From contig JAKURQ010000006.1 in assembly GCA_022449785.1 (NCBI GenBank), forward strand, positions 1 through 47,814: 47,814 nucleotides of DNA, written 5' to 3'. This document shows, one piece after another, positions 39,047 to 47,814 of this stretch. A program made the translations under genes and the position numbers. Under the pieces are notes generated by a model, which did no database searches, was not told the DNA's origin, and was given only the letters and a program-made list of their open reading frames with translations. Source of the stretch: Candidatus Poseidoniia archaeon (GTDB taxonomy: Archaea; Thermoplasmatota; Poseidoniia; MGIII; CG-Epi1). Each line of letters opens with the position of its first letter. Within the stretch, counting starts at the first letter, position 1.

Positions 39047-41626
39047 TTAGAGGTCTATTTCTCCTTCCAAGCCACATTCAGAGCATCTAATTTCTTGAGT
39101 TCCTGAAACTTTAGGAATATCCATTCTTGCTGAACATTCTGGACACTCTATGGTCATAGTCTCCCTAACAACCTTTCTCTTTCGAACTCTACGCTCTTTG
39201 ACTGGGGATGGTTCGGGAACTACTGACTCCATAAATTCAGAACCTGAAACTGGTTCTGCTTTAGGAGGTGGTTCATAAGCTGAAGAATCTTCCCTTCGAT
39301 TCATGTAAAATAAAACTGCGCCAACAGCTACTATTACTAACAATATACCGCCGATACCAACTATTATCTCATTTTGAGAAAATGAACCTACAGTATTTCC
39401 TGAAGAAGCTTTACCTGTACTTATTTGTGAATTGTCATCCACAATACTTATTGTACATGTATCTCTAGCCACAAGACCATCGTCATCAGTGACTCTTACA
39501 ACAACAAGATATGTAGAATCTAGAGGTGTAAAATTGTAAGCATGAGTAGCAAAATCTGCGCCTTTGAAATCAACTGAATCAATGTCGCCAGTAGAACTAT
39601 TGAAATCCCACTCATACAACACTATACGGCCTCCTCCCTTATCACTAGCAATTGCTGTAAACAAAGCTTCCTCATTTAGAACCACTTCTTCATCACACAC
39701 TGCTGAAACTAATGGCGGGGAAAGTATCTGGATTGTGATAGTTAGTGATTGACTAGTAGCTCCAAAAGAATCTGTAACTATTAGATAAACTTCTTTCTCG
39801 CCAATATCAGAATCTGAAGTAATAACACTAGAACCATTATCTGAACTTTCATATAAATTCTGACCATTTGCAAAGAATAAAGATTCTGAAGTCCAGGTAT
39901 AAGTTATAGAATTACCATCAGGGTCAAAAGCCTCAGCGAACATAATAACACTCTCTCCTGCAACAACAGGATCTGGATCTACAGTAACAGTATTTAGAAC
40001 TGGAATACCATTAACAACTAAATTCGCAGTTACGTTAGATGACCAAAAACCAATATCATTAATAGCTCTGAAAGTTATTAAATGTGAGCCTCGGGACAAA
40101 TCAGAGGTACTGAAGGTTGGCTCTTCTGATAGTTGACCATCTATACTAGAAATCCATTGATAACCAACTACTTCTGTATCTTCTGATGCTTCAGAAACGG
40201 CTGAACCTGTGAAAACTACTGAAACTCCTTCACCAATAACACAATCTAGAAGAGATAAACAACCAGTAATTGAATCTATACTGGCTTCGGGGAAATCTCC
40301 GATACCAATATTCATTGCTACTTCTTTACTCCAGCGACCTTCATTATCCATCACACTGAAAGAAATAATATGATATCCCATACTCAAATTTGATATCGTG
40401 AAATTTGACGCATTTGACAAATTACCATCGAGATTTGAATGCCACAAATATGAATCAATAGTCCCATCAGAATCTAATCCTGAACCAACCATAGTAACAG
40501 GCGTGTTTGGTAATGCAGTAGTTGGATTAATAGATTCAATTATTGCAATTGGCACTTGATTATCTAACTGCCTTTCATAATAGAGAGCCAAGCCTGCATC
40601 AGTTCCAACAGCAATGTTCTCACCTCTGTAAGACAATGCCACACTGTTTATGTCTCCAAAAACGGAAGTACGCCATAACTCATCTCCATTACTTGTGTTA
40701 GCCAGAACTAATTTTTTGTTAGTAGATCCTGCAACCAAATATTTTGCATCTCCATTGAAATCAATATCTGTAATGGCTCCTCCTATGTTTTTATCCCACA
40801 ACTTAAAATCTATAGATAAATCAAGAACTGTAATTAATCCTTGATCTGTTCCAAACGCATAAAAATCAGGATTGAAACTACCTGTAACACAAGTTACCTC
40901 ATCAGATTGACCATATTCTAATGCAGGGTCTCCTCCCTCTGAAGCATAAACATAAACTTTCCCATTTTCAGATCCGATAATCAAGTAATTACTATCTCCT
41001 GAGAAAGCCAAATCTGTTATTTTTCCGTCAAGTGTACCTGAATGATACCAGTTTGGATTCTCTCCTGATGATGTTTCATAAACATACACGTTTCCATCCT
41101 CTGTACCTGCTGCAATATATTGGTGATTTGGAGATATTGCAACTGCAGTCATGGTATCACTTGCATGGTTATCAACCCAAATTTCATCATCTGAATTTGT
41201 ATTGAAATAATAGACATTACGGAAATCGACTACTGCTAGTCTTGTACCATCTGGAGTCAGAGCAACTTCGCCTACACTCAAGAAAAAATCAGTTTTTTCC
41301 CAATTTTTTGAACCTTCTTCCCAAAGGGTTACGGTAGTATCTGTTTCTTCACCAGTAACAACAAATCTACCACTCGATGACATATCCATAGATGATATTC
41401 CTTGGCCTACTGTCTTAGAATTATATGGCGTCGAGGTATCATTTCTCCAAAGTGAAACAGTTTTAGCATATGTAGCAGAGATATTTACAGAATCATCGGA
41501 TATTTCTACATTTGAAATTGCGTCTGTAGAATAATGCTGCCAAATTGGATCTTTATCTGCTTGAACGCCCGAAAGTGTGAATGTGAGTGCCACTAAAATC
41601 AATACTGCTACATCTAAACGTCTCAT
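39047..41626 (-). CDS. Surface protein: signal peptide, WD40/PQQ propeller, PKD/Ig-like domains, TM, cytoplasmic zinc ribbon
   Basis: Propeller repeats (AISPNHQYIAAGTEDGNVYVY); PKD-like DSDGTIDSYLW, YEWDF, RVTDDDG; TM; CPEC-x16-CSEC. Confidence 0.8.
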   Translation of the reverse strand: MRRLDVAVLILVALTFTLSGVQADKDPIWQHYSTDAISNVEISDDSVNISATYAKTVSLWRNDTSTPYNSKTVGQGISSMDMSSSGRFVVTGEETDTTVTLWEEGSKNWEKTDFFLSVGEVALTPDGTRLAVVDFRNVYYFNTNSDDEIWVDNHASDTMTAVAISPNHQYIAAGTEDGNVYVYETSSGENPNWYHSGTLDGKITDLAFSGDSNYLIIGSENGKVYVYASEGGDPALEYGQSDEVTCVTGSFNPDFYAFGTDQGLITVLDLSIDFKLWDKNIGGAITDIDFNGDAKYLVAGSTNKKLVLANTSNGDELWRTSVFGDINSVALSYRGENIAVGTDAGLALYYERQLDNQVPIAIIESINPTTALPNTPVTMVGSGLDSDGTIDSYLWHSNLDGNLSNASNFTISNLSMGYHIISFSVMDNEGRWSKEVAMNIGIGDFPEASIDSITGCLSLLDCVIGEGVSVVFTGSAVSEASEDTEVVGYQWISSIDGQLSEEPTFSTSDLSRGSHLITFRAINDIGFWSSNVTANLVVNGIPVLNTVTVDPDPVVAGESVIMFAEAFDPDGNSITYTWTSESLFFANGQNLYESSDNGSSVITSDSDIGEKEVYLIVTDSFGATSQSLTITIQILSPPLVSAVCDEEVVLNEEALFTAIASDKGGGRIVLYEWDFNSSTGDIDSVDFKGADFATHAYNFTPLDSTYLVVVRVTDDDGLVARDTCTISIVDDNSQISTGKASSGNTVGSFSQNEIIVGIGGILLVIVAVGAVLFYMNRREDSSAYEPPPKAEPVSGSEFMESVVPEPSPVKERRVRKRKVVRETMTIECPECSARMDIPKVSGTQEIRCSECGLEGEIDL

Positions 41627-41682: not shown

Positions 41683-42282
41683 CTAACCTCTCATCAAATT
41701 ATAGCGTCCTCTCAACTCTAAAACTTTTAGAGCTTCAAGTACTGATTTAGAAGCTCCTGTCGAATAAGCTTCAAGAAAGATATTGCGACCATTAATTTCT
41801 GAATGATGTGAGTCTAGTGACTCTAGAAAAACACGCAAATCAGAGGCTCTATCTTCATCATCATCAGATATACTAGAAAGGCCAAAATCAATTGCATAAA
41901 TTTTATCATTAACTAAAAAATTACTAGTTGTAGGATCGCCATGTACTACATTTAATGAATGAATCCTCGATAGGAGATGAGCTGTTTGAATTAGATGTTT
42001 TTTGAAGTCTTTTCCACGCAAGGCTCTCTCAAGGGTCTGACCTTCGATAAATTCCATAAAAATACTATTGTCAGATGTATTAACACTGAAAATTGCTGGA
42101 ACTGGAACGCCTTGTGAAATTAGTCTTTCCATTATACGAGATTCGCTACGTAATCTTTCCACAACTAACCTTTTTTCCAAAGCAGGATGACGATAGCCTC
42201 TCTTATTACGCATTTTAGATATGACTGTTTGGCCATTCCACTCTATTGTTTCAACAATAGCCTCCGCACCCCTAAATTTCAT
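41683..42282 (-). CDS. bud32: KEOPS kinase/ATPase Bud32; ATG at 42282 (ATGA overlap with kae1)
   Basis: RGAEA, YRHPALE, HGDPTTSN, IDFGL, RGRY. Confidence 0.92.
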   Translation of the reverse strand: MKFRGAEAIVETIEWNGQTVISKMRNKRGYRHPALEKRLVVERLRSESRIMERLISQGVPVPAIFSVNTSDNSIFMEFIEGQTLERALRGKDFKKHLIQTAHLLSRIHSLNVVHGDPTTSNFLVNDKIYAIDFGLSSISDDDEDRASDLRVFLESLDSHHSEINGRNIFLEAYSTGASKSVLEALKVLELRGRYNLMRG

Positions 42283-43262
42283 CTCCAAGTAACCTCAACC
42301 ATATCTGTTCTATATTTCTGATTAACCATATTATCTTCGTCTTTTATTTCATAATTTGCAGCCATCATCTGATAACCAAGCCAGCCAATCATTACACCAT
42401 TATCAACACACAAAGCCCTCTCAGGAACAAAACATTTGACTCCGCGCTCTTCTGCCATGGTCATAGCCATCTCTCTAAGTCGTGAATTACAAGCCACGCC
42501 ACCTCCCAATACTAGCTCTGTCTTTCCAGTGTGTGCTAAGGCTCTTTCAGAAACTTCACAAGACATTGCAAACGCAGTTTCCTGAACTGAATATGCAACA
42601 CTAGGTAAGGAATAACCAGAATCTACTTTTTGCTTTGCTGCAGTCATTAGTCCTGAGAAGGCTAAATCCATTCCCTTAACTGAATATGGTAAATCTATTA
42701 GTTCATCTCCTTCTGCAATCTTTTCAAGTTTGGGACCTCCTGGAAAACCCATGCCTGCTTCTCTAGCAAACTTATCCAACCCATTCCCTATTCCTATGTC
42801 AATAGTTTCCCCAAAAACTCTGTAACGGCCATCGGCATATGCAATAACTTGTGTATTTGCACCTGAAAGATAGAGTAAAACTGGATCTGTTGCACCCTCC
42901 AAAAGACCTATCTCTAAATGAGCCACGCAGTGATTCACACCCAAGAAGGGGATATTGTGTGCATAAGCGAAGGCCCTAGCTGCAGTTGCGCCAGTTCTTA
43001 GACAGGGACCTAAACCGGGACCTCTTGCATAAGAGACTAATGTGATATCCTTTGGGGACAAATTAGCTTCCTCGAGAGCACTCTTGAATAATATTGGAAA
43101 CTTTTCTGAATGATGATTTGCAGCTTCTCTAGGATGTATTCCTTCTCCTTTATCTGGAATATAAACTGACCTTTGATTAGAAAGAATCTTACCTTCTGAG
43201 GTTATTATTCCTACACCTGCAGTATGTGCTGTTGACTCAATACCAAGAATTATTTCGCTCAC
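42279..43262 (-). CDS. kae1: KEOPS t6A tRNA threonylcarbamoyltransferase Kae1
   Basis: GIESTAHT, GPGLGPCL, NHCVAHLE, SGANTQ, GETIDIGIGNGLD, DNGVMI, YRTDMVEVTWR. Confidence 0.96.
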   Translation of the reverse strand: MSEIILGIESTAHTAGVGIITSEGKILSNQRSVYIPDKGEGIHPREAANHHSEKFPILFKSALEEANLSPKDITLVSYARGPGLGPCLRTGATAARAFAYAHNIPFLGVNHCVAHLEIGLLEGATDPVLLYLSGANTQVIAYADGRYRVFGETIDIGIGNGLDKFAREAGMGFPGGPKLEKIAEGDELIDLPYSVKGMDLAFSGLMTAAKQKVDSGYSLPSVAYSVQETAFAMSCEVSERALAHTGKTELVLGGGVACNSRLREMAMTMAEERGVKCFVPERALCVDNGVMIGWLGYQMMAANYEIKDEDNMVNQKYRTDMVEVTWR

Positions 43263-43267
43263 TTCAA

Positions 43268-44701
43268 TTACTCTTCTTCAGATGAAGAATCTGGTATTGC
43301 CATTTCCCTTTTGTCCTCATCCTGAACTGCCTCACTATTTGAGTCTGGTTCTTCTTTAGATTCACCAGAATCGGATATTTGGTCCTCAGCTCCAGTGTAT
43401 ATTATGTAACAGCATAGACTTAATATGATGAAAATTGCCAAAAGACCAGCCCAAGAACCGTCTGACTTTGAGAAATCATCTCCAGATTCAATCTCTATGA
43501 ATCTGTTCAAAGATATAGTGTAATCATCAGTTGAATTGTCGCTATAATCAACAACAACTGATTCTACTGAAATTGAAAGTGGACCTTCTTTAGAAGCAAT
43601 CCAAGTTACATTTGTTATTTGTGTGCTGTTAGATGTAAGAGAAATACTCGATCTAGAAGATGTGACCTTATTATTAATGAAAAGATTGACATATAAATTA
43701 TTGAAATTTATATCTGTTGGGTTAAAAATAGACACACTAAAATTAACATTAGAGAATTTAGGTGCTTTTTCACCTATGATATATGGACTTTCATCCACAA
43801 AAAGAGTACCTGATTCAAATATGACTTTTGAATGATTAAGGTCAAAAGATTCAATGATATCTGTATTATCATCAATATACCCCTCCCATGACTTTTCTAC
43901 ATAGCCAAAACCAAGATTTAGATAGAATGTGAATCTAGCTTGATGGTCTAAAATTTGGCCTGAAGAATCAATCTCATATTGTTTTGCCCAATTCCAGGAC
44001 CCGACAAGCATTTCTCCATTCCACTGCCTTACTTCAAATCCTTCAATAGGTAAGTTTGTTGAAGATTCTAAAGCTGAAAAAGTAATCCACCATTCTTGTG
44101 TCATGCGTGTACTGCAATTGTAATAATATATCGACTCTAAATCAGGTTCTGAACCAATAGAACGTAACCCTAGTGTGTAATTTCTTATATTGACTCCAGA
44201 AGCAGTTAGATTAGTATCTTCCGAGAAAATACCATAGTTAATCTTACTAAAACCATCAAGTGCTAAACCTGTAATATCTGCATTGCCTCCAACCAACCAT
44301 ATCATGCCATAGTAAATTGTTGAATCATAAATTGATAAATTTCCTGCATCTGAAACTAAGGTATATGGAGAGATTAGAATTTCACTAGTATTTTCACCAA
44401 GATGGTATTCGGAGGTACTTATTGTAGTGTTAATTATATCTAATTGACCACCTGGATTGATTCGAATCTCAGAAGTTGTGTAATCTAAGGTCCTATTAAC
44501 ATTCAAATAAGAATCTTTTATTACTAAATGCCCATCAATAAGTATATCTCCACAAAGCCAAATATGTTCACTATCTAATACTATACTTTGATCACTAGAT
44601 ACAGTCATATTCTCATATTGGCATTCTTCAGATTCTGCATTCAATGTTAGAAAGAGAACCGCGAAAACAAAAATAGCGCTTATTATACTCAGGACACGCA
44701 T
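43268..44701 (-). CDS. Secreted beta-rich surface protein with Ig/CARDB-like domain, TM and acidic tail
   Basis: Signal peptide; beta-helix-like N-terminal half; VNFSVSIFN...NVTW; C-terminal TM; many N-x-S/T sequons. Confidence 0.65.
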   Translation of the reverse strand: MRVLSIISAIFVFAVLFLTLNAESEECQYENMTVSSDQSIVLDSEHIWLCGDILIDGHLVIKDSYLNVNRTLDYTTSEIRINPGGQLDIINTTISTSEYHLGENTSEILISPYTLVSDAGNLSIYDSTIYYGMIWLVGGNADITGLALDGFSKINYGIFSEDTNLTASGVNIRNYTLGLRSIGSEPDLESIYYYNCSTRMTQEWWITFSALESSTNLPIEGFEVRQWNGEMLVGSWNWAKQYEIDSSGQILDHQARFTFYLNLGFGYVEKSWEGYIDDNTDIIESFDLNHSKVIFESGTLFVDESPYIIGEKAPKFSNVNFSVSIFNPTDINFNNLYVNLFINNKVTSSRSSISLTSNSTQITNVTWIASKEGPLSISVESVVVDYSDNSTDDYTISLNRFIEIESGDDFSKSDGSWAGLLAIFIILSLCCYIIYTGAEDQISDSGESKEEPDSNSEAVQDEDKREMAIPDSSSEEE

Positions 44702-44791
44702 GATATTCTAAAAGAGTCTCCATATAAATACAATCTATGGTCGCTCTTTAGTGTGATATTAGTTTTAAAGGGAGCTTTATTTGACATAGTA

Positions 44792-45607
44792 ATGAAGCGC
44801 ATTTTAGGAATAATTCTGACGTTTGTTTTGCTTTCACAGCCATTAGTAAGTAGTGAAACTGATAATTACGTGAGTCATCCAGGAAACATACCTGATTTTC
44901 ATAATTTTGCTACTCCTCAATTAGAACCTGGTGAAAGTGGAGATTTTGCTTTAGATATTTACAATAGATATGGATATTCTCTAGACAATGTAACCATCAT
45001 GGCTGAAATATACCATAGAGCAGACATAGATGAATCTGAAGCTTTAGACAATATTCAATCTGCTGAAAGGCCATACATTAACAAAAAATGTTGGAAATCA
45101 TTACCTGAAGGGGATAAAAACTGTGGAGATAATGAAGGAGAATTAGTTGAATATAGCATAGGAACTATTGAAACCAATACTACAATATTTCTTGAGTTTA
45201 ATATTGTCACTAAAGAAAATACCAAAGAAGGAACCTATTTTGTTAGATTCTCTATGGATTTTGAATATAACGGAACTGCCAGAAGCATGCAGTCCAGAGG
45301 TCACTGGAACATGGAATTGTGGGAAGAAGCCACTACGAATGTGACTGAAGGATCACCTGGCAATATCAATTTAGAAGTTCTAGGAGTAGATGGAATTATC
45401 CCGGATTCTTCTTTTGGAGTCAAAAAGCCAATACCAAAATGGCCATTGTATGCTCTTATTACATTAACAATTGTATTTGCAGGGCTTTCTGTTATATTTT
45501 ATCTTGAAGAAGAAGGGAACTATCCTGAATTAAATAAATGGCTTCAGAAGCAAAGGGGCAAACTTAATGAGCTTAGGTTGCGCTTTAAGTACAGAAAAGG
45601 CAGCTAA
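44792..45607 (+). CDS. Membrane-anchored Ig-like hypothetical protein; ATG at 44792 preferred
   Basis: MKRILG signal peptide; TPQLEPGESG, TKEGTYFVRF; C-terminal TM and basic tail. Confidence 0.7.
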   Translation: MKRILGIILTFVLLSQPLVSSETDNYVSHPGNIPDFHNFATPQLEPGESGDFALDIYNRYGYSLDNVTIMAEIYHRADIDESEALDNIQSAERPYINKKCWKSLPEGDKNCGDNEGELVEYSIGTIETNTTIFLEFNIVTKENTKEGTYFVRFSMDFEYNGTARSMQSRGHWNMELWEEATTNVTEGSPGNINLEVLGVDGIIPDSSFGVKKPIPKWPLYALITLTIVFAGLSVIFYLEEEGNYPELNKWLQKQRGKLNELRLRFKYRKGS

Positions 45608-46708
45608 AGAAGCATAATCTAAATCACCTGTTTTTTCTATTGCATCTTTTACTTTGGGTTCACCAAGTATTGATATTATTTCGGACAATTGATCATCACT
45701 TAAACTCAGGAAAGCCTTACGCAAATGGTGCCCTTTCGTCAATTCACCACCTATTCTCTGACTTATAAGATCTTGATATGGGCTCAAGGTTTTCGAGTCC
45801 AATTTATTTTTCTCTAAGGCCTTATTTGCGACTTCAAAAGCGGCATCCGCAGAAATCAAACCTGAATATATTCCACCACCAGAAGTGGGTTTGGCCATTC
45901 CTGCCGCATCTCCTGTTAAAAGAACATTGTCTGTATAACTTGGATTTCGAGTACCAAACGGAATCAGACCACTAACTCGATTAATTATCTTAGCTCCTCC
46001 AAGTAACTTTGAAGGTGCTCCTTTGTGAAAATAATCTCTGAAGAAATTTTTAGGTCTATTTGGTAAAACAGTTGCCATGCCTATTCTACCTTCATTAGGT
46101 CCAGTAGGAATTCCCCATCCAAAAAATCTTGGTGCCAACTCTGAACCAACGAAAAGGTCAACATGATTATCACGGCCTTGATATCCCTCAACATCAGCTC
46201 CAAAGGCTGCCAAGACTTCTCTTTTAGTGCTAAGTCCTGCATCACGTGCAACACGAGAAGCAGGGCCATCTGACCCTACAATCAAACGAGACTTAATCTC
46301 AATTTTACCATTTTTGCTTTGGACTGTCGCAGTAATTCCTTCCTCGGACTTCTTATGGCCCAAATATCTATGACCTGCTCGCATTTCTGCTCCTGCATCA
46401 ATTGCCCTGTTAGCAATTGATCTATCCAAGTCAGGCCTATCTATAACCAAAGCTTTGGTCTCTGATGCTTGAAAATCAAGAAACGAATCATTGGGACCCC
46501 ATAATCTTGCCCCATTCATTTCTTGAAATACGGGACGTTCATATCCTAAATATTCAAACGTACGAGGTGTGATTAATCCTGCACATTGACACGGTTCTCC
46601 TATGATTTCATCTTCTTCTACAATTGTTGTAGAATAGCCTGCCTTGGCTAGATTCCATGCCGTCCTAGAACCACTAGGTCCAGCCCCTATGACTAAAGCA
46701 TCAATCAT
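45530..46708 (-). CDS. Geranylgeranyl reductase family (digeranylgeranylglycerophospholipid reductase-like)
   Basis: VIGAGPSG, PCQCAG, IDRPDLD, GSDG, FGWGIP, GDAAGMAKPTSGGGI. Confidence 0.88.
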   Translation of the reverse strand: MIDALVIGAGPSGSRTAWNLAKAGYSTTIVEEDEIIGEPCQCAGLITPRTFEYLGYERPVFQEMNGARLWGPNDSFLDFQASETKALVIDRPDLDRSIANRAIDAGAEMRAGHRYLGHKKSEEGITATVQSKNGKIEIKSRLIVGSDGPASRVARDAGLSTKREVLAAFGADVEGYQGRDNHVDLFVGSELAPRFFGWGIPTGPNEGRIGMATVLPNRPKNFFRDYFHKGAPSKLLGGAKIINRVSGLIPFGTRNPSYTDNVLLTGDAAGMAKPTSGGGIYSGLISADAAFEVANKALEKNKLDSKTLSPYQDLISQRIGGELTKGHHLRKAFLSLSDDQLSEIISILGEPKVKDAIEKTGDLDYASLAAFSVLKAQPKLIKFAPLLLKPFI

Positions 46709-46717
46709 TATGCCTTA

Positions 46718-47814
46718 CTATTCGAGGGGGACTAAATCTATTTGGCAACTATCTGTCAAACCTGCATCAGCTAATGACAGATTAACGTCAACTGCTGCAC
46801 CATTTAACATAACTGCAAAATTAGCATGTGGTAGTTGGAATTTCTCAATACAATTCTGTAATAATTTATTTACAGGCATGTTTGAAGGAACTTTAACGTT
46901 TGCCGTTTTACCATCTACTGTAGATACGATTACTACTCCTATCTTCGAAGGAACTGCTGTAGTTTCTTCTTCACCGGAATCATCATCTGATTCTTCATCA
47001 TCTGTAGGTCTTGATTTAGATCTTCCACGGCCGCGTCTTCTCAAGATTGGTACTGCTACCATTGCAAGAACCAAAGCAATACCTGCTAATGCGGGATAAA
47101 GAAGAGGAACTCCCTTAATCAATTCTCTCTCAGTTAGATAATTAATAGCTTCAATCTCTCCTAAAACTGCAGGCAATACTAGTGGCAATGTATCTGTATA
47201 TTCATCATTGTCAGTTCCACCGCCTGGTGATGAATCATCACAAGTATCACATTGCTTAATTTCGAAATTACCAGTTCCTGCATCAATTGTCCAGGTCAAT
47301 GTAAGCTCATCCTTATTGTCCTCATCAGGGACTGTCCAAATGAATTTTACTTCAGTTGTATCTGCTTGATTAATTGATTCAGATACTGATTCTGATTTCT
47401 CATAACCAGTTCCATCCTCAAATATGACGGATAATGTCTTTGTTGGTGACCAATCAGCATTACCTATGTTCTCAACTGTTACTGTAATCTCAACCTCTTC
47501 TCCAACTTCTGGATTACGTGGATCCATCACTACTTTCTTAATTCTGAAATCTGGAAGAGTTTCAAACTTAACTTCTACCTCATTCTGTGTGAAAATTCCG
47601 GAACGTGGATATTCATTATCTGCATACCTGCCTAATTCATCAAACATACGGTCCGTTTCAACTGCAAAACCATCACCTTCTGATTCACACTCGAATTCAT
47701 GGATGTTGTAATCATCACATACTGGATTTACTTCAGCCCTGAAAGAACTCCATTCTTCTCCAACTGTCTTCCAACGGAATCTAACATCTGTTGTTTCCCC
47801 TGCATCAACATCGA
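46718..47814 (-). CDS. CARDB-repeat single-pass membrane protein with cytoplasmic ubiquitin-like domain; 5' end beyond the window
   Basis: Frame stays open from 47647 to the edge (DVDAGETTDVRFRWKT...); CARDB motif PDFRI...PEVGEEVEITVTVENIGNAD; TM, RRRGRGR, acidic linker, 74-aa beta-grasp-like C-terminus. Confidence 0.82.
   Translation of the reverse strand, partial: DVDAGETTDVRFRWKTVGEEWSSFRAEVNPVCDDYNIHEFECESEGDGFAVETDRMFDELGRYADNEYPRSGIFTQNEVEVKFETLPDFRIKKVVMDPRNPEVGEEVEITVTVENIGNADWSPTKTLSVIFEDGTGYEKSESVSESINQADTTEVKFIWTVPDEDNKDELTLTWTIDAGTGNFEIKQCDTCDDSSPGGGTDNDEYTDTLPLVLPAVLGEIEAINYLTERELIKGVPLLYPALAGIALVLAMVAVPILRRRGRGRSKSRPTDDEESDDDSGEEETTAVPSKIGVVIVSTVDGKTANVKVPSNMPVNKLLQNCIEKFQLPHANFAVMLNGAAVDVNLSLADAGLTDSCQIDLVPLE

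Follow-up and report, generated by a model that had tools for sequence, protein, structure and literature searches.

Results

Ubiquitin-like tail and flavoprotein gene at the end of an archaeal contig

The stretch of DNA analysed here, which we call the window, is the entire contig JAKURQ010000006.1 (47,814 nucleotides; C56 in our numbering) of the Candidatus Poseidoniia archaeon assembly GCA_022449785.1, a genome of 1.04 Mb in 97 contigs with 37% G+C and 86% completeness. One end of the window carries the 3′ part of a gene for a giant predicted envelope protein, whose last 74 amino acids (aa) form a ubiquitin-like (Ubl) domain, and directly downstream of it lies a gene for a flavoprotein of the geranylgeranyl-reductase (GGR) family. 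The truncated open reading frame (ORF) of the giant protein occupies positions 46718..47812 of the minus strand and leaves the contig end at 47812, so that 364 aa are visible; judged from a relative of 1774 aa, P0002, about 1410 codons of the gene would lie beyond the contig end. The features of this region are the following.

46721..46942, minus strand: Ubl domain (74 aa) that terminates the giant envelope protein, predicted to be cytoplasmic; last residues ...LVPLE, without Gly-Gly
46718..46720, minus strand: stop codon TAG of the giant gene, read from the sequence
46943..47041, minus strand: predicted cytoplasmic linker of 33 aa, with the basic stop-transfer segment RRRGRGRSKSR followed by an acidic, Ser/Thr-rich part
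47042..47113, minus strand: single transmembrane (TM) helix GVPLLYPALAGIALVLAMVAVPIL, assigned by hydrophobicity
47114..47812, minus strand: visible membrane-proximal ectodomain of 233 aa, with a CARDB/DUF11 immunoglobulin-like (Ig-like) domain at about 47279-47554
46709..46717, minus strand: spacer of 9 nt between the stop codon of the giant gene and the next ATG, read from the sequence
45530..46708, minus strand: gene for the GGR-family flavoprotein of 392 aa, directly 3′ of the Ubl codons

The visible ectodomain matches the Pfam families CARDB (38.6 bits, cut-off 22.7) and DUF11 (27 bits), and the linker contains eight K/R, ten D/E and eight S/T residues. A preliminary description of this DNA had claimed that the protein ends in a ubiquitin-like domain preceded by CARDB repeats, a TM helix and a basic segment. 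The coordinates and the peptide that it gave were exact, the last 74 aa being encoded by 46721-46942, and the upstream features were found where it had put them: the CARDB domain, one hydrophobic helix and, right after the helix, RRRGRGRSKSR. In the same genome, tblastn with either the visible 364 aa or the last 90 aa detected no paralogue (after the gene's own match, the next best had E=0.69), and the visible part of the gene has no match on any other contig of that genome.

The tail is related to ubiquitin and YukD

When the 74-aa peptide alone was compared with Pfam, two models scored above their cut-offs: TUG-UBL1 (E=2.1e-7, 31.4 bits, cut-off 23.3) and Rad60-SLD (E=6.9e-7, 29.4 bits, cut-off 23.8). 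The Pfam ‘ubiquitin’ model gave 23.2 bits, just below its cut-off of 25.4. The YukD model (PF08817, cut-off 27) reached 16.9 bits for the tail of the window and 19.4 bits in genus g3, and the EccD model TIGR03920 gave 12.2 bits (E=0.057). Neither ThiS (PF02597) nor UBX (PF00789) matched the tail at E<=10.

A profile named A1, built from 13 tails of four genera, was compared with all PDB sequences. The best 60 of its 81 matches were exclusively ubiquitin-type chains, headed by the ‘redesigned ubiquitin’ 2mlb (E=9.7e-6) and including SUMO2, mitoribosomal mS68, ISG15, the DSK2 Ubl, Ubl4A and midnolin. Because these alignments to solved ubiquitin-like chains are near full-length, mostly spanning positions 4-76, we infer a beta-grasp fold for the tail. 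A phmmer search of the tail against 1.84 billion representative sequences returned 34 matches at E<=0.001, namely the tail’s own family, true polyubiquitins whose C-terminus is LRLRGG, and proteins of prokaryotes that contain repeated Ubl domains of the YukD type.

In comparisons with hhalign, A1 scored 98.9% against ubiquitin-type repeats (22% identity over 74 columns, with a single 1-residue gap, in strand 1) and 98.6% against bacterial YukD-type domains, scores that are partly circular since both comparison sets were drawn from the tail’s own matches. The sole independent control among these comparisons is the contrast with the ThiS proteins of the same order, which end in SGG and gave a probability of 0.3%; in a direct search A1 gave -1.9 bits for one of the order’s two ThiS proteins and no match for the other. 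When single domains were scored with the tail profile, prokaryotic YukD-type domains were the best outside the family (25-36 bits), and canonical ubiquitin repeats obtained 8.5-8.9 bits.

Judged from its sequence, the tail is a genuine ubiquitin-family domain, with a resemblance to ubiquitin well above what chance would give. Because of the Pfam, PDB-profile, hhalign and per-domain scores, we assign it to the ubiquitin/YukD assemblage and not to ThiS/MoaD/SAMP. Thus, the ubiquitin-like domain claimed in the preliminary description is borne out by the two Pfam models above cut-off and by the ubiquitin-type PDB matches, and its separation from MoaD/ThiS/SAMP by the lack of a ThiS match and by the low hhalign value. 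The gap-free alignment proposed there, with 13 identities over 69 residues, was about right but is one residue off in the first strand, where hhalign places its gap. The label ‘eukaryote-style’ is apt in so far as the domain belongs to the ubiquitin family, but on these comparisons it overstates the tail’s affinity: YukD-type domains are rated the same by hhalign and higher per single domain.

The Ubl domain is the predicted inner end of a giant surface protein

A search for longer proteins yielded 94 relatives of 703-2000 aa. The best of them, P0002, is 1774 aa long and 100% identical over the last 165 aa. Its only hydrophobic segments are residues 7-33, a signal peptide, and 1641-1669, the TM helix. 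Seven K/R residues are present in the 15 aa after the helix and two in the 15 aa before it. The P0002 ectodomain is acidic, with 20 N-X-S/T sequons, and the Pfam domains along the protein are FixG_C, CARDB, NPCBM_assoc, DUF11 and DUF7507, and then the Ubl. At NCBIfam, P0002 matches ‘choice-of-anchor T’ (160.9 bits, cut-off 70), and NF033506 ‘putative S-layer protein’ at 60.6 bits, below the cut-off of 110. The relatives are named ‘uncharacterized membrane protein’ or ‘FixG Ig-like domain-containing protein [Candidatus Poseidoniales archaeon]’ in the databases, and another is labelled as a hypothetical protein of ‘Marine Group III euryarchaeote CG-Epi3’.

The predicted order of parts is therefore a signal peptide, an Ig-like CARDB/FixG/DUF11 array outside the cell, the TM helix, a linker that is first basic and then acidic, and the Ubl inside. 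Because of the N-terminal signal peptide, the single C-terminal TM helix and the positive charges on the tail side, the tail should be on the cytoplasmic side, in agreement with its placement in the preliminary description. Since the protein is single-copy and order-wide, with an ectodomain that is 53-92% conserved, it looks more like a structural envelope (S-layer-like) protein than like a receptor; whether it is the S-layer or main envelope protein is, on its predicted features, an even call. The giant gene is present in contigs assembled from RNA libraries of four runs, data whose contig form gives no expression ranking.

In the precomputed Pfam list of one relative, P0052 (936 aa, on a 3.7-kb contig), CARDB and the Ubl tail are accompanied by N-terminal families of the SMC/AAA type (PF13175, PF13476, PF13555, PF02463). 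Either the assembly or the gene call may be chimeric, or the N-terminal part of this protein may differ.

Several short matches were considered as stand-alone Ubl genes and rejected. P0096, P0100, P0102-P0105 and P0108 are read as fragments; P0096 and P0103 begin within or just after the TM helix, and P0103, the sole one of the short matches whose contig was so examined, lies on a contig of 858 b. P0117, which matches the tail of family f2, is probably also a fragment.

Strong conservation of the tail, and a screen for conjugation enzymes

The Ubl was the best-conserved region in nine of nine pairwise comparisons, with identities of 70-99%. The corresponding ranges were 53-92% in the ectodomain, 25-92% in the TM helix and 27-67% in the linker. 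None of the 94 relatives ends in Gly-Gly, in line with what had been noted for the window’s own tail. The C-terminal ends vary by genus (LVPLE, LVSLEE, IDAIEE, LAPKQ), and in the deepest family (f2) the Ubl domain is followed by a further Pro/Ala tail of 30 aa.

Ile44 of ubiquitin is its usual receptor contact. The equivalent position in the tail is M, H or K depending on the genus, and the positions of the Ile44 patch are not kept. The order-invariant positions of A1 are K20, P22 and M25, in the loop between strand 2 and the helix, and A63 and G64, before the last strand; by comparison with the structure of ubiquitin, they would lie on the surface of the fold.

Genomes of the order were then screened for enzymes of Ubl conjugation. 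E1-like ThiF was found in neither of two genomes of the window’s genus (G000, which is the genome of the window, 86% complete, and G012, 92% complete), and the ThiS family was likewise not found in these two. ThiF is present in three of three genomes of genera g3 and g2. ThiS occurs only in genus g3, where it adjoins ThiF; the ThiF gene and the SGG-ended ThiS-type gene stand side by side at G036:C11:35632-36947 and G038:C57:33782-35106. JAB was found in none of five genomes of the order and UQ_con in none of the same number, in a search whose positive control was silent.

Because there is no Gly-Gly, the ends vary, conservation is strong and no E1 was found in the window’s genus, we conclude that the tail belongs permanently to the protein, is maintained by strong selection and does not depend on conjugation enzymes.

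The giant protein is a feature of one order

The tail is present in 42 of the 45 genomes of the window’s order, including all nine high-quality ones. There is one copy per genome, with the exception of G001, in which a second, weaker match ends a different ORF of 476 aa. The tail always forms the end of the giant ORF, which has 1774-2389 aa when complete and is shorter at contig ends. The three tail-negative genomes are 64-81% complete and lack the tail, the ectodomain and the downstream GGR gene, all three; the locus is probably unassembled in them.

Profile A1 matched in none of 156 sampled genomes of the class’s two other (sister) families. The membrane-proximal ectodomain is distributed like the tail: 42 of the order’s 45 genomes have it, and none of 56 from the sister families does. 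A survey of the phylum covered 401 genomes, and the tail profile matched in two of the 391 outside the window’s family, neither with the giant-protein architecture. The preliminary description had proposed such a survey of the Thermoplasmatota, and its outcome is a giant CARDB-TM-Ubl architecture found in the order and in none of the 391 genomes of other families.

Three Ubl proteins of other kinds were observed, the first two of them being the matches of the phylum survey. G434, of another Thermoplasmatota family, carries at L076 3750-5618 (plus strand) a stand-alone Ubl of 91 aa (DUF2604, 42.2 bits). Next to it come a 166-aa ORF, then one of 165 aa that has an HSHPG...SDEDD motif and matches Prok-JAB weakly (20.1 bits, below cut-off), and lastly an ORF that contains a GAGAVG motif and is interrupted where the contig stops. 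These genes may form a prokaryotic operon for Ubl conjugation or of the defence type. In G265 (L077 4625-5206, plus strand), the tail profile matches the N-terminus of a 193-aa protein (24.4 bits) with a C-terminal FHA domain (26 bits). Finally, G001, of the deepest family of the order, encodes at L042 7810-9225 (plus strand) an intramembrane metalloprotease of the PrsW family (471 aa, 115.9 bits) with a long Gly/Pro/His-rich linker and a C-terminal Ubl (TUG-UBL1, 24.9 bits) that ends in ...IIAPG. It adds a second Ubl-tailed membrane protein to the order.

A GGR-family gene follows the Ubl codons

The protein encoded by the downstream gene scores 206.8 bits with NCBIfam TIGR02032 GG-red-SF (cut-off 158.8) and is far below the cut-offs of the lipid-reductase equivalogs. 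The giant gene and the GGR-family gene are adjacent, on the same strand, in 15 of 15 loci from four genera. The distance from stop to start is 9 nt in g1, -4 nt in g3 (a GTGA overlap), 12-13 nt in g2 and 16-20 nt in g4. The orthologues are 46-85% identical within the order; identity to the remaining GGR paralogues of these genomes, and to the closest matches from five sister-family genomes, does not exceed 31%. The giant gene and the GGR gene are an order-specific two-gene module, and, from their spacing, are probably translationally coupled. Contigs from RNA libraries (3 runs of 3 studies) span the junction and extend 31 nt or more to either side of it. This is no proof of a single transcript, and such libraries may contain DNA.

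Neighbouring surface-protein genes and zinc ribbons

Farther downstream, further genes are kept in the main family, whose features in the window are listed here together with three related genes on other contigs of the same genome.

44753-45607, plus strand: predicted surface protein of 284 aa that matches no family of Pfam or NCBIfam; signal peptide at the start and TM helix at the C-terminus
43268-44701, minus strand: predicted surface protein of 477 aa that matches no family of Pfam or NCBIfam; cytoplasmic tail acidic and rich in Ser
41683-42288 and 42279-43262, minus strand: overlapping Bud32-like and Kae1-like genes, named by reading the sequence
39047-41626, minus strand: 859-aa surface protein with a WD40 beta-propeller and PKD outside, a TM helix and a zinc-ribbon cytoplasmic tail
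C5:5435-8788, C15:5928-9662 and C25:7748-11971 of G000: the other three ribbon-tailed surface proteins, recognised by ORF and ribbon motif

The genes of the 284-aa and 477-aa proteins are syntenic with the giant gene across the main family, and that of the 284-aa protein is also present in one locus of the deepest family. Its ORF and the GGR-family gene are convergent and share about 78 nt at the 3′ end of the latter. The genes at 41683-42288 and 42279-43262, which from our reading of the sequence we take to encode the KEOPS subunits Bud32 and Kae1, respectively, are part of the conserved surface-protein cluster in genera g1, g3 and g2. A fusion of a Ubl with the KEOPS subunit Cgi121 in Thaumarchaeota is described by Makarova and Koonin (PMC2948915); the link between KEOPS and a Ubl at the locus of the window is probably a coincidence.

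The gene of the 859-aa protein also lies in conserved synteny, 5 kb from the giant gene, and its ribbon has 15 invariant columns out of 52. The genome of the window encodes four large surface proteins (stop-to-stop ORFs of 860-1408 aa) with a TM helix and a short tail that ends in a CxxC...CxxC ribbon, and relatives have 2-13 ribbon matches per genome. A ribbon-tail query found matches in 38 of 42 and two of two genomes in two families of the order and in neither of two genomes of genus g2. In the sister families the matches at E<=0.01 (6 of 26 and 22 of 50 genomes) were weak and mostly off the ribbon. A co-occurrence of zinc ribbon and Ubl was considered and rejected: there is no clean profile, and genus g2 has the Ubl tail without a ribbon match. 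Co-folding of the Ubl tail (A1) with the zinc-ribbon tail of the 859-aa protein (A2) and Zn scored 0.00 in both runs, which speaks neither for nor against binding.

Discussion

Our full-text searches listed no paper on a ubiquitin-like tail of an archaeal surface protein, although the precomputed Pfam lists of the databases carry PF11470 and PF11976 for these proteins. What is new is twofold. A kind of adaptor that is already known, the non-conjugated, membrane-tethered Ubl, is now found on a giant archaeal envelope protein, and an order-specific GGR-family gene tightly follows the Ubl codons.

The closest likeness is with type VII secretion. The Ubl of EccD and the proteins YukD and EsaB resemble the tail in lacking Gly-Gly, in not being conjugated and in being located at the cytoplasmic face of the membrane, and EccD resembles the giant protein in that its Ubl is fused to a membrane protein; YukD and the EccD Ubl are assembly or contact modules. 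The cytoplasmic Ubl of EccD contacts EccC and EccE (PMC6986878), YukD is an assembly factor (bioRxiv 10.1101/2025.01.24.634720), and YukD is not conjugated, a homologous domain being fused to a 12-TM protein in actinobacteria (PMC1779556). YukD-type domains are also the best-scoring single domains outside the tail family, yet the Pfam YukD model remains below its cut-off. There are further differences. The EccD Ubl is N-terminal on a 12-TM protein, whereas here it is C-terminal on a single-pass giant surface protein, and in an archaeon; and the conserved neighbours here are the GGR-family gene, the small surface proteins and Kae1/Bud32.

The integral Ubls of eukaryotes (TUG-UBL1, the SUMO-like domains of Rad60, and those of DSK2, Rad23, Ubl4A and midnolin) are likewise built-in, non-conjugated adaptor domains, but they belong to soluble cytosolic or nuclear proteins with known receptors, whereas the tail is fused to a membrane protein and does not keep the Ile44 equivalent. 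No eukaryote-type context of E2, RING or deubiquitinating (DUB) enzymes was found by the JAB and UQ_con searches of five genomes, the UQ_con control being silent. Grau-Bove et al. (PMC4327156) report a UCH, RINGs of the C3H2C3 type and a RINGv E3 from the genome of a single Marine Group II cell. The archaeal Ubls of the SAMP/ThiS/MoaD/Urm1 kind are small beta-grasp proteins too (PMC2948915), but the ThiS proteins of the order end in SGG and adjoin ThiF, and the tail is without Gly-Gly and fused to a membrane protein. Like archaeal S-layer and large Ig surface glycoproteins that are anchored in the membrane by their C-terminus, the giant protein has a signal peptide, an Ig array, many sequons, a TM anchor at the C-terminus and a single gene per genome. 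For those proteins, the literature searches listed no paper that describes a folded cytoplasmic domain of the ubiquitin type.

In the reading that we favour, the Ubl would never be released for conjugation and would stay tethered beneath the membrane as a fixed protein-protein docking module, much as the YukD/EccD Ubls hold parts of the type VII secretion machine together. By this analogy, we consider it somewhat probable that the tail is a non-conjugated cytoplasmic docking module. Its docking partner might be the order-specific GGR-family flavoprotein encoded by the downstream gene, which would be kept at the site of glycoprotein insertion in the membrane and would act there as a reductase on prenyl chains of lipids or of the dolichol type. 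Archaeal lipids are substrates of GGR-family enzymes. In Haloferax volcanii one such enzyme also reduces dolichol phosphate, the carrier of N-glycans (PMC10821996, citing Naparstek et al. 2012). By analogy, the link between the giant protein and the GGR-family protein could be metabolic, physical or both, and the specific proposal that the latter is the docking partner is doubtful.

Several points weigh against this reading. No test pointed to any docking partner, and the adjacency of the two genes can be explained by co-regulation of envelope and lipid/dolichol synthesis, with no binding between the products; the RNA-library contigs across the junction may stem from DNA. The Ile44 patch is not kept. 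As to the identity of the domain, the YukD model stays below its cut-off, the hhalign scores for ubiquitin and YukD are partly circular, and the beta-grasp fold follows from homology of sequence only. The silent control detracts from the negative UQ_con result, and the S-layer part of the reading is weak, the S-layer model falling well short of its cut-off.

Other explanations of the tail have to be weighed against these data. The tail could recruit Cdc48/VAT, PAN or the proteasome, making the giant protein a receptor, as the preliminary description had supposed, or a protein with a built-in handle for extraction and turnover, in the manner of eukaryotic UBL/UBX proteins. The domain is of the ubiquitin/SUMO type according to Pfam, CDC48_N scores above cut-off in four of five genomes of the order, and the PrsW-family protease with such a tail in the deepest family would fit a general quality-control tag of membrane proteins. 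We nevertheless regard such recruitment as unlikely: the tail has no UBX match at E<=10, the Ile44 equivalent is M, H or K across genera, CDC48_N was not found in the 86%-complete genome of the window, and one tail-bearing protein per genome in the main family would be odd for a general degradation tag. The same protease, together with the single-pass architecture, the large ectodomain and the small, highly conserved inner domain, would also be in keeping with regulated release, in which a signal from the Ig array leads to intramembrane or juxtamembrane cleavage and the freed linker and Ubl act as a cytoplasmic signal. This is very improbable, as the linker has no conserved cleavage motif and is only 27-67% identical, the short ‘stand-alone’ matches are read as fragments, and the protein contains no part resembling a transcription factor. 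That the tail is the precursor of a conjugatable modifier, to be excised and attached to targets like ubiquitin or SAMP, is close to refuted. The ubiquitin-family sequence and the presence of E1-like ThiF in genera g3 and g2 would suit it, but Gly-Gly ends are absent from all 94 relatives, the ends differ between genera, ThiF was found in neither genome of the window’s genus, and JAB and UQ_con (the latter with its silent control) were found in none of five.

A structural role is conceivable as well, in which the tail would tie the surface lattice to the cytoskeleton, to the division machinery or to envelope proteins, for instance by binding zinc-ribbon tails. The four large surface proteins with a TM helix and a C-terminal zinc ribbon in the genome of the window, and the strongly conserved ribbon of the 859-aa protein encoded in synteny 5 kb away, are what such an anchor would lead one to expect; genus g2, which has the Ubl tail and gave no ribbon match in two genomes, is not, and we consider the anchor distinctly improbable. 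A broader form of the docking reading would make the tail a permanent hub that captures the prenyl reductase and possibly the ribbon tails, that is, a ubiquitin-type recognition system built by the order for organising its envelope. We think this unlikely, but if it were true, saturation of lipid or dolichol, insertion of the glycoprotein and growth of the lattice would be physically coupled, and a non-covalent ‘ubiquitin code’ would operate in an archaeon apparently without E1, E2 and DUB enzymes.

Because the tail stands as near to bacterial YukD-type Ubls as to ubiquitin and no conjugation enzymes accompany it, the finding has no bearing on the origin of eukaryotic ubiquitin signalling. Its significance lies with the organisms themselves. 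Archaea of Marine Groups II and III are abundant but have not been cultivated, and next to nothing is known of their cell envelopes. A giant envelope protein with a ubiquitin-type inner tail and a dedicated prenyl reductase, in what would be one operon, provides a molecular signature of the order, and the tail, as a soluble domain of 74 aa that could be expressed as bait, offers an experimental handle. Non-conjugated Ubls as assembly modules of membrane machines have so far been documented for bacterial type VII secretion, and the docking module proposed here would extend them to an archaeal type-I surface protein.

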